A model generated the notes under the pieces. That model saw nothing but the letters and a program-made list of their open reading frames with translations, did no database searches and had not been told where the DNA came from. This document shows, in pieces, positions 1,507-3,447 of a DNA stretch of 5,108 nucleotides. The position numbers and the translations under genes are program-made. Source of the DNA: a virus (taxonomy: Duplodnaviria > Heunggongvirae > Uroviricota > Caudoviricetes); IMG/VR virus record IMGVR_UViG_2663762648_000011, one strand, 5' to 3'. Each line of letters starts with the position of its first letter. Position 1 is the first letter of the stretch.

Positions 1507-2556
1507 GGCTGGGAGACGGCGACAGAGCTTGTGGAGGATACGCAGGCCATTGCCCGTTACGGTCGTAACGTCACGAAGATGGATGCTTTTGGCTGTACCA
1601 GCCGGGGGCAGGCACACCGCGCCGGGCTGTGGCTGATTAAAACAGAACTGCTGGAAACGCAGACCGTGGACTTCAGCGTGGGCGCAGAAGGGCTTCGCCA
1701 TGTGCCGGGCGATGTCATTGAAATCTGTGATGATGACTATGCGGGTATCAGCATCGGCGGGCGCGTGCTGGCGGTAAACAGCCAGACCCGGACGCTGACG
1801 CTCGACCGTGAAATCACGCTGACATCTTCCGGCACCACGCTGATAAGCCTGGTTGACGGGCAGGGAAGTCCGGTCAGCGTGGAGGTTCAGTCCGTCACCG
1901 ACGGCGTGAAGGTGAAAGTGAGCCGTGTTCCTGACGGCGTTGCTGAATACAGCGTGTGGGGGCTGAAGCTGCCGACGCTGCGCCAGCGCCTGTTCCGCTG
2001 TGTGAGTATCCGTGAGAACGACGACGGTATGTATGCCATCACTGCAGTGCAGCATGTACCGGAGAAAGAGGCCATCGTGGATAACGGGGCGCACTTTGAC
2101 GGTAACCAGAGCGGCACGGTGAATGGTGTCACGCCGCCAGCAGTGCAGCATCTGACCGCAGAAGTCACCGCAGACAGCGGGGAATACCAGGTGCTGGCCC
2201 GCTGGGACACGCCGAAGGTGGTGAAGGGGGTGAGCTTCCTGCTTCGCCTGACCGTGGCAGCGGATGACGGCAGTGAGCGGCTGGTCAGCACGGCCCGGAC
2301 GAAGGAAACCACTTACCGCTTCACACAACTGGCTCTGGGGAACTACAGGCTGACAGTCCGGGCAGTAAATGCGTGGGGGCAGCAGGGCGATCCGGCGTCG
2401 GTATCGTTCCGGATTGCCGCACCGGCAGCGCCGTCGCGGATTGAGCTGACGCAGGGCTATTTTCAGATAACCGCCACGCCGCATCTTGCGGTTTATGATT
2501 CGACGGTACTGTTTGAGTTCTGGTTCTCGGAAAAGCGGATTGCGGATATCAGGCAG
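1507..2556 (+). CDS. J: Host-specificity protein J, internal fragment B (a distinct allele; homologous to copy A from position 918 onward and continuing beyond it)
   Basis: Frame 1 is open throughout. Translation [93 protein letters not shown]...[65 protein letters not shown]...[11 protein letters not shown]. In the 465 bp aligned to A 918..1382 I count about 21 substitutions, most of them synonymous. The ORF track fuses this with segment C across the N run (1531..3480). Confidence 0.85.
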
Positions 2557-2648
2557 NNNNNNNNNNNNNNNNNNNNNNNNNNNNNNNNNNNNNNNNNNNN
2601 NNNNNNNNNNNNNNNNNNNNNNNNNNNNNNNNNNNNNNNNNNNNNNNN
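2557..2648. other. Assembly gap (92 N)
   Basis: Uninterrupted run of n. Flanking sequences are homologous J segments, so the true junction sequence is unknown. Confidence 0.97.
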
Positions 2649-3447
2649 CGGGCGCGTGCTGGCGGTGAACAGCCAGACCCGGACGCTGACGCTCGACCGT
2701 GAAATCACGCTGCCATCCTCCGGCACCACGCTGATAAGCCTGGTTGACGGGCAGGGGAATCCGGTCAGCGTGGAGGTCCAGTCCGTCACCGACGGCGTGA
2801 AGGTAAAAGTGAGCCGTGTTCCTGACGGTGTTGCTGAATACAGCGTGTGGGGGCTGAAGCTGCCGACGCTGCACCAGCGATTGTTCCGCTGCGTGAGTAT
2901 CCGTGAGAACGACGACGGCACGTATGCCATCACCGCCGTGCAGCATGTGCCGGAAAAAGAAGCCATCGTGGATAACGGGGCGCACTTTGACGGCGACCAG
3001 AGCGGCACGGTGAATGGTGTCACGCCGCCAGCAGTGCAGCATCTGACCGCAGAAGTCACCGCAGACAGCGGGGAATACCAGGTGCTGGCCCGCTGGGACA
3101 CGCCGAAGGTGGTGAAGGGGGTGAGCTTCCTGCTTCGCCTGACCGTGGCAGCGGATGACGGCAGTGAGCGGCTGGTCAGCACGGCCCGGACGAAGGAAAC
3201 CACTTACCGCTTCACACAACTGGCTCTGGGGAACTACAGGCTGACAGTCCGGGCAGTAAATGCGTGGGGGCAGCAGGGCGATCCGGCGTCGGTATCGTTC
3301 CGGATTGCCGCACCGGCAGCGCCGTCGCGGATTGAGCTGACGCAGGGCTATTTTCAGATAACCGCCACGCCGCATCTTGCGGTTTATGATTCGACGGTAC
3401 TGTTTGAGTTCTGGTTCTCGGAAAAGCGGATTGCGGATATCAGGCAG
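2649..3447 (+). CDS. J: Host-specificity protein J, internal fragment C (5' part identical to allele A, 3' part identical to fragment B)
   Basis: Frame 1 (codons from 2650) is open. Positions 2649..2862 are identical to A 1169..1382; positions 2996..3447 are identical to B 2105..2556. Translation [100 protein letters not shown]...[11 protein letters not shown]. Confidence 0.85.

Follow-up and report, generated by a model that had tools for sequence, protein, structure and literature searches.

The DNA analysed here (the window, 5,108 nt of a viral scaffold assigned to the Caudoviricetes) is made up of four pieces, A to D, that match the gene for gpJ, the tip attachment/host specificity protein J of phage lambda, and that are separated from one another by three runs of N. 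We placed the pieces by blastn on the coordinates of the intact 3,480-nt gpJ gene of E. coli strain N51. All four overlap on the coordinates of one J gene, and gap-free J genes carry this region once (Table 1). In thousands of complete E. coli genomes, genes annotated as ‘gpJ: phage attachment tail tip protein J’ are 92–99% identical to the pieces, and the reference loci have a lambda-like gene order of tape measure, M, L, K (C40 peptidase), I, J, Lom and Stf. The full Pfam series of gpJ, as found in the J gene of reference locus L001, is FNIII-A_GpJ, Phage-tail_3, Ig_J, Ig_J_second, Phage_Tail_Tip and Ig_GpJ_C; each piece carries the subset of this series that matches its coordinates, in canonical order. 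Piece D, for example, encodes Ig_J, Ig_J_second, Phage_Tail_Tip and positions 1–47 of 135 of Ig_GpJ_C. The likeness to lambda gpJ lies in the 92–99% identity to annotated lambdoid gpJ genes, in the order of the domains and in the lambda-like gene order of the reference loci. The difference is that the window is without an intact J gene; instead, it holds overlapping fragments of at least three alleles, and the C-terminal receptor-binding domain is cut at the end of the window.

Table 1 Features of the window, with positions on the N51 gpJ gene where these apply
Feature	Position in window	Strand	gpJ position or description
Piece A	1–1505 (J-matching 1–1382)	+	gpJ nt 308–1689, frame 3; 98.0% identical to L001 J
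Fold-back chimera	1383–1505	-	Reverse complement of the window's own 731–853
Single-N scaffold join	1506		Between the fold-back and piece B
Piece B	1507–2556	+	gpJ nt 1225–2274 (aa 409–758), frame 1; hybrid
Candidate switch zone in B	1777–1821	+	45 bp identical in D-type and N51-type alleles
Identical block, copy 1	2105–2556	+	Naturally preceded by B-like sequence in complete genomes
Assembly gap, 92 N	2557–2648		Sole determinant of B–C spacing and frame
Piece C	2649–3447	+	gpJ nt 1476–2274; continues piece A
Candidate switch zone in C	2996–3032	+	37 bp identical in A/C-type and B-type alleles
Identical block, copy 2	2996–3447	+	Same end base as copy 1, before an N run
Assembly gap, 11 N	3448–3458		C-to-D offset 791, not a multiple of 3
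Piece D	3459–5108	+	gpJ nt 1495 to ~3150, into the C-terminal receptor-binding domain

An earlier note on this DNA had described positions 1507–3447 as an in-register direct repeat of 891 bp (297 codons), with identical 3′ halves and divergent 5′ halves. Direct sequence comparison confirmed that B and C are offset by exactly 891 positions in an alignment without gaps, and that their final parts are identical at 452 of 452 positions, an identity well beyond chance expectation. The amino-acid differences given as examples (R/H, M/T and N/D) are also correct against the sequence. The 5′ parts are divergent, as claimed, but the estimate of 4–5% was slightly too low, since 21 of 347 sites differ (6.1%; 1758–2104 versus 2649–2995). 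The idea of two equal units did not hold, because positions 1507–1757 of B are without a counterpart in C. As for the register, 891 is divisible by 3, but both the 891-bp period and the kept frame are due to the length of the run of 92 N that lies between B and C.

A repeat finder combined with the mapping on J coordinates returned four overlapping copies in the window, rather than the two of the earlier note. The start-to-start offsets from A through D are 589, 891 and 791; they are unequal, and the one in three that is a multiple of 3 is what is expected by chance. None of the three junctions between copies is sequenced: each is a run of N, and every N run, including the single N at 1506, sits exactly at a jump in J coordinates. 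We conclude that the numbers behind the proposed repeat were right but that its description was wrong, because it spans a gap and belongs to a stack of four copies.

The relationships among the pieces bear on what these copies are. Piece A is the 5′ part of an allele that we call A/C-type, and its positions 1169–1382 are identical to positions 2649–2862 of C; C therefore continues the allele of A and is not a second repeat unit. Piece D is a third J allele, 100% identical to pieces of the IMG/VR scaffolds L005 and L010 and 99.1% identical to E. coli 14EC007. The block shared by B and C encodes the entire Ig_J domain and positions 1–43 of 105 of Ig_J_second, and a real unit boundary at its end would therefore cut an Ig-like domain mid-way.

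Piece A ends in a fold-back. Within the window there is an inverted repeat with arms at 731–867 and 1369–1505 (137 nt, 99%), and the 3′ end of piece A maps to J 1174–1038 on the minus strand. The 10-nt word GCTGAAGCTG marks the join of the fold-back, which makes a TAG stop codon at 1383–1385. Complete genomes align to piece A only over positions 1–1382. An exact 38-mer across the fold-back junction had no match in collections of genome contigs and viral contigs, and a 51-mer specific to C had none among the genome contigs. We conclude that the scaffold is demonstrably misassembled, with piece A ending in a fold-back chimera.

We compared B and C with known J alleles along their length. Against the N51 allele, B has 13 differences in 1553–1776 and only two in the remaining 780 bp (1777–2556), while its first 294 bp (1507–1800) match the D-type allele, as represented by the first piece of L010, with two mismatches. 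The last difference from N51 in the 5′ cluster is at 1776 and the first difference from D is at 1822, and these two sites bracket the 45-bp candidate switch zone. Piece C has a similar make-up. Its first 384 bp (2649–3032) match, at 100%, a common allele found in loci such as L007, L008, L012, L013, L017 and L022. Over 3033–3401 there are 17 differences between C and that allele, and from 3033 on C bears the allele of B in place of the sequence that usually follows. Here, the last B/C difference is at 2995, and 3033 is the first position at which C differs from the natural A/C-type allele. The block together with its B-type left flank occurs at 99.6–99.8% identity in six complete genomes, including N51 and JNEC-KY174, and each half of B and of C is found elsewhere at ~100%. 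Hence, B and C are each two known alleles joined inside short shared stretches of 45 and 37 bp. We considered that B and C might simply be novel alleles, and set this aside because the mismatch maps resolve each of them into two known alleles. J genes are naturally mosaic, however, and the new combinations that make up B and C may exist as true alleles.

As a fair sample of the sequence that usually follows the 5′ allele of C, we used 20 loci that had been pulled independently by an exact 51-mer in the left half of C. In none of ~24 alignments (19 of the 20 51-mer loci) was the continuation block-like; there were 11–47 differences in that region. Among 5,426 complete E. coli genomes, the 121 nt across the C junction (2940–3060) had no match at 100%, the 201 nt across the B junction (1700–1900) matched at 98.0% at most, and neither B nor C was found exactly at full length, the best matches being 98.7% for B and 98.0% for C. 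Thus no locus or complete genome from another assembly reproduces the recombinant allele C in one unbroken stretch. An exact 67-nt word across the C junction is present in 11 other viral contigs, none of which matches C over its full length (13–19 differences in the left half); such a short word is therefore not diagnostic of C. It does show that the D codon (GAC, 2994–2996) combined with block-type sequence exists locally in nature.

B and C halt at the identical base (...ATCAGGCAG), directly before N runs. Beyond this stop, D and all reference alleles continue with GTTGAAACCA, and D reads through the stop point uninterrupted; the references part from one another 11 nt later. Piece C begins 4 nt beyond a position at which the alleles vary, and piece D 1 nt beyond one. 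We considered an exact de Bruijn branch point as the cause of the end shared by B and C. The fit is only approximate, since the pieces stop 10 nt short of the first divergent site of the reference alleles, and not exactly at it.

We next consider how often this segment occurs in genomes and in proteins. It is present in 4,564 of the 5,426 complete E. coli genomes, at a median of two and up to 12–13 separate places per genome, a multiplicity that gives an assembler room for ambiguity. In all gap-free J loci the open frame is 1133–1166 aa long, and each of two marker peptides occurs in it exactly once. We searched the translation of B with HMMER against 1.84 billion representative proteins and examined the best 150 of 3,879 hits. 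Among these 150, homologues of near-full length each contain a single copy of the segment, which begins around residue 398–424; the exception is a distant protein (P0081; 1,634 aa, 32% identity) with three matched Ig-like stretches. Close hits with two stretches, or with the segment at odd positions, are fragments or fusions: P0004 and P0005 are fusions of tape measure and J, P0012 of terminase and J, and P0002 of J and tail fibre. The only close hits that look duplicated are P0001 and P0013, odd fragments with repeated J segments. P0001 comes from a GenBank draft (GCA_949281435.1), where its contig of 2,783 bp is a stack of six J pieces with single Ns. Stacking of J pieces separated by N also occurs, at other J coordinates, in the IMG/VR scaffolds L005, L010, L012, L013 and L015, and some of the pieces in those scaffolds match A and D at 100%. 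The stacking is thus recurrent and tied to draft assembly, and is not a conserved gene architecture.

The data described above are best explained, with a probability that we put at about 90%, by false duplication during assembly of at least three paralogous J alleles, in which case the window would be a short scaffold out of a draft short-read assembly, made up solely of gap-separated J fragments set end to end. This assignment is inferred from structure and comparison. The source genome would contain at least three J paralogues (A/C-type, B/N51-type and D-type), and, with paralogues that are 94–99% identical, the assembly graph would break at variant sites. Mate pairs would then link the near-identical fragments to one another, and the scaffolder would set the four overlapping fragments in series, separated by 1, 92 and 11 N, to give an illusory tandem repeat. 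On this model, the 452-bp block would be the B/N51-type allele written twice: C would begin on the A/C-type allele and switch to the B-type allele within the 37-bp shared stretch, and B and C would then end at one common unresolved point. The switch of allele is more likely to reflect path-switching by an assembler or gap-filler than a real recombinant. Path-switching is the simplest reading because two unseen hybrids and a proven chimera occur in one gap-ridden 5-kb scaffold.

There are precedents for an error of this kind. Near-identical, mate-linked contigs that are placed adjacently mimic a recent tandem duplication, as shown for haplotypes (Kelley & Salzberg 2010, PMC2864568), and false duplications have consequences for gene models in the form of false or extended genes (Ko et al. 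2022, PMC9516828). What the window shares with those cases is a series of adjacent, gap-separated, near-identical contigs whose positions coincide when they are aligned to a correct reference. It differs in two respects: the sequences involved here would be prophage paralogues of a haploid bacterium, where those studies dealt with the two haplotypes of a diploid, and the pieces are themselves chimeric between paralogues.

The earlier note had also favoured an assembler artefact arising from paralogous J genes over a duplication, and this part of its account is supported by the gap-delimited stacking, by the single-copy state of gap-free J genes and by the similar behaviour of other drafts. It had further proposed that the paralogues share a recently homogenised block. 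In that case, two co-resident prophage J genes would share a real block of at least 452 bp, acquired by recent gene conversion or recombination, that passed through a collapsed node; the C allele would then be real, although the tandem arrangement would still be an artefact. In keeping with this, the 452/452 identity adjoins flanks with 6% divergence, the shared end base of the two copies is what a collapsed node would give, J alleles are mosaic across genomes, with references that differ in blocks, and the 67-nt junction word recurs in the 11 other contigs. Co-resident lambdoid prophages are, moreover, reported to recombine (PMC8190617, PMC8743559), and the mapping of short reads to prophage paralogues in E. 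coli is ambiguous (PMC8190617). The window resembles cases of recombination or gene conversion between lambdoid prophages of E. coli, O157:H7 being one example (PMC8743559, PMC8190617), in that several highly similar prophages in one genome, mosaic J genes and an identical block beside diverged flanks are involved; it differs in that the comparison here favours one allele written twice over two physical copies.

Gene conversion stays live but secondary in view of the ambiguous mapping of reads and the recombination of prophages described in those studies (PMC8190617, PMC8743559). A homogenised block is not demonstrated, and the evidence leans against it. None of the ~24 independent alignments of the 5′ allele of C continues with the block, and the 121 nt across the C junction are matched at 100% in none of the complete E. 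coli genomes. The same 5-kb scaffold contains B, another unseen hybrid, whose switch likewise falls in a short shared stretch (45 bp), and it holds a proven chimera at 1383. The 5′ boundary of the identical tract is visible at 2104/2105 and 2995/2996; its 3′ boundary, which a conversion tract should also have, is hidden by the gaps. We therefore regard real gene conversion as possible but rather unlikely, and prefer the interpretation that a single allele was written twice by the assembly.

Two other explanations fare much worse. If the N runs were database masking, the window would be real, uninterrupted sequence from a locus at which fragments of J pseudogenes had been rearranged. Some collections do mask stretches as N, and prophage remnants with partial J genes exist; the J gene of 14EC007, for instance, is a pseudogene cut by IS1. 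However, masking has no reason to coincide with every junction, and here each N run, down to the single N at 1506, coincides exactly with a jump in J coordinates; the joining of stacked J pieces by a single N is also seen repeatedly in independent draft assemblies. We consider masking highly improbable. Least probable of all, and close to negligible, is a true in-frame tandem duplication (or triplication) of a module of ~297 residues, such that one J gene would carry two to three tandem copies of a region comprising the end of Phage-tail_3, all of Ig_J and part of Ig_J_second, with repeated Ig_J domains and with its junctions in the gaps: the offset from B to C is divisible by 3, and distant J-like proteins such as P0081 can bear several Ig/FN3-like stretches, but all copy junctions are N runs, the periods are unequal and two of the three break the frame, A and C overlap identically with C continuing A, the unit boundary would truncate Ig_J_second at 43/105, two independent junctions would be needed with the same left breakpoint (J 2274) and with right breakpoints at ≤J 1476 and ≤J 1495, each hidden by a gap, two copies occur in none of the gap-free J loci and in none of the near-full-length close homologues, and the sole close homologues that appear duplicated come from tiny, gap-ridden, J-only contigs. 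Were such a module real, the tail-tip protein would be ~300–600 residues longer.

We conclude that the 891-bp repeat is very unlikely to be a real duplication, or indeed a real feature of this phage gene. That an Escherichia-like genome carries several near-identical lambdoid prophage J genes is already well known, and the window is of little biological import in this respect. J is, however, the host-range determinant, and through draft scaffolds like this one, databases of viruses and of proteins acquire tail-tip proteins that seem to be ‘duplicated’, truncated or fused; similar J-only tangles and chimeric J open reading frames occur among the IMG/VR loci, in one GenBank draft and among the library proteins. 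Analyses of repeats, recombination and domain architecture in receptor-binding proteins should therefore drop copies that are separated by N runs.

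Piece B (window 1507-2556) is a hybrid of two alleles of J, the lambdoid prophage tail-tip attachment gene. Positions 1507-1800 match the D-type allele with two mismatches (compared with the first J piece of L010, a comparison locus), and positions 1777-2556 match the N51 type, the reference J of E. coli N51, again with two mismatches. No match to the junction in B exceeds 98.0% among 5,426 complete E. coli genomes.

Piece A terminates in a fold-back chimera, in which the sequence continues as the reverse complement of a stretch lying further upstream in the same piece. The join lies at the 10-nt word GCTGAAGCTG, and the switch produces a premature TAG at 1383-1385; a single N follows directly. 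At position 857, A has a C, whereas 16 of 30 aligned loci have a T, and this C extends the microhomology used by the join.

Features of the window and of scaffolds with stacked J pieces
Feature	Location	Strand	Details
Fold-back chimera	window 1383-1505		arms 731-867 / 1369-1505
25-nt motif	window 2044-2068 / 2140-2164		peptide AVQH; equivalents in C and D
Long antisense open frame	window 1471-3375	(-)	634 aa
Long antisense open frame	window 3384-4589	(-)	401 aa
Scaffold with stacked J pieces	L005 1-5021		
Scaffold with stacked J pieces	L013 1-5052		
Scaffold with stacked J pieces	L012 1-13840		
Scaffold with stacked J pieces	L010 1-2694		
Scaffold with stacked J pieces	L015 1-8547		
Scaffold with stacked J pieces	L035 1-2783		

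The allele segment at window 2649-3032 is found at 100% identity in at least 13 IMG/VR loci; over its full length, the best identity in complete E. coli genomes is 98.2%. A 51-mer of this segment does not occur in any GTDB species-representative genome. The lineage from which the window derives is therefore not represented among the complete E. coli genomes or the GTDB species representatives. For piece D, the best complete-genome match, at 99.1%, is the J of E. coli 14EC007 (L002 2507-6557), an allele annotated as a pseudogene without its C-terminus and followed directly by an IS1A transposase, ~160-210 bp past the equivalent of the window end.

The 25-nt motif beginning GCAGTGCAGCAT occurs twice, 96 bp apart, in every copy, with one site just 5′ of the Ig_J domain and the other at its start; this recurrence is a small internal similarity within J. 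The long open frames antisense to J have no Pfam support, and the 634-aa frame runs through Ns. Long frames recur opposite intact J in other loci, with 767-aa examples in L007, L008 and L022. Most likely, these frames do not code for protein and are shadows of a gene with codon bias.

Chimeric J-containing ORFs are present in the public protein library (P0001, P0002, P0004, P0005, P0012 and P0013): some repeat J segments internally, others fuse J to the tape measure, one fuses it to terminase and one to a tail fibre; the distinction between real deletion and misassembly was checked for P0001 only. Because of their odd architecture, these ORFs form separate 50% cluster representatives. Overlapping J fragments stacked with single Ns between them, as in the window, are also found in other draft-genome scaffolds, both in IMG/VR UViGs that derive from isolate genomes and in GCA_949281435.1 (contig L035). 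Some of these fragments match A or D of the window at 100% identity. This recurrent stacking points to a systematic pipeline artefact entering viral databases.
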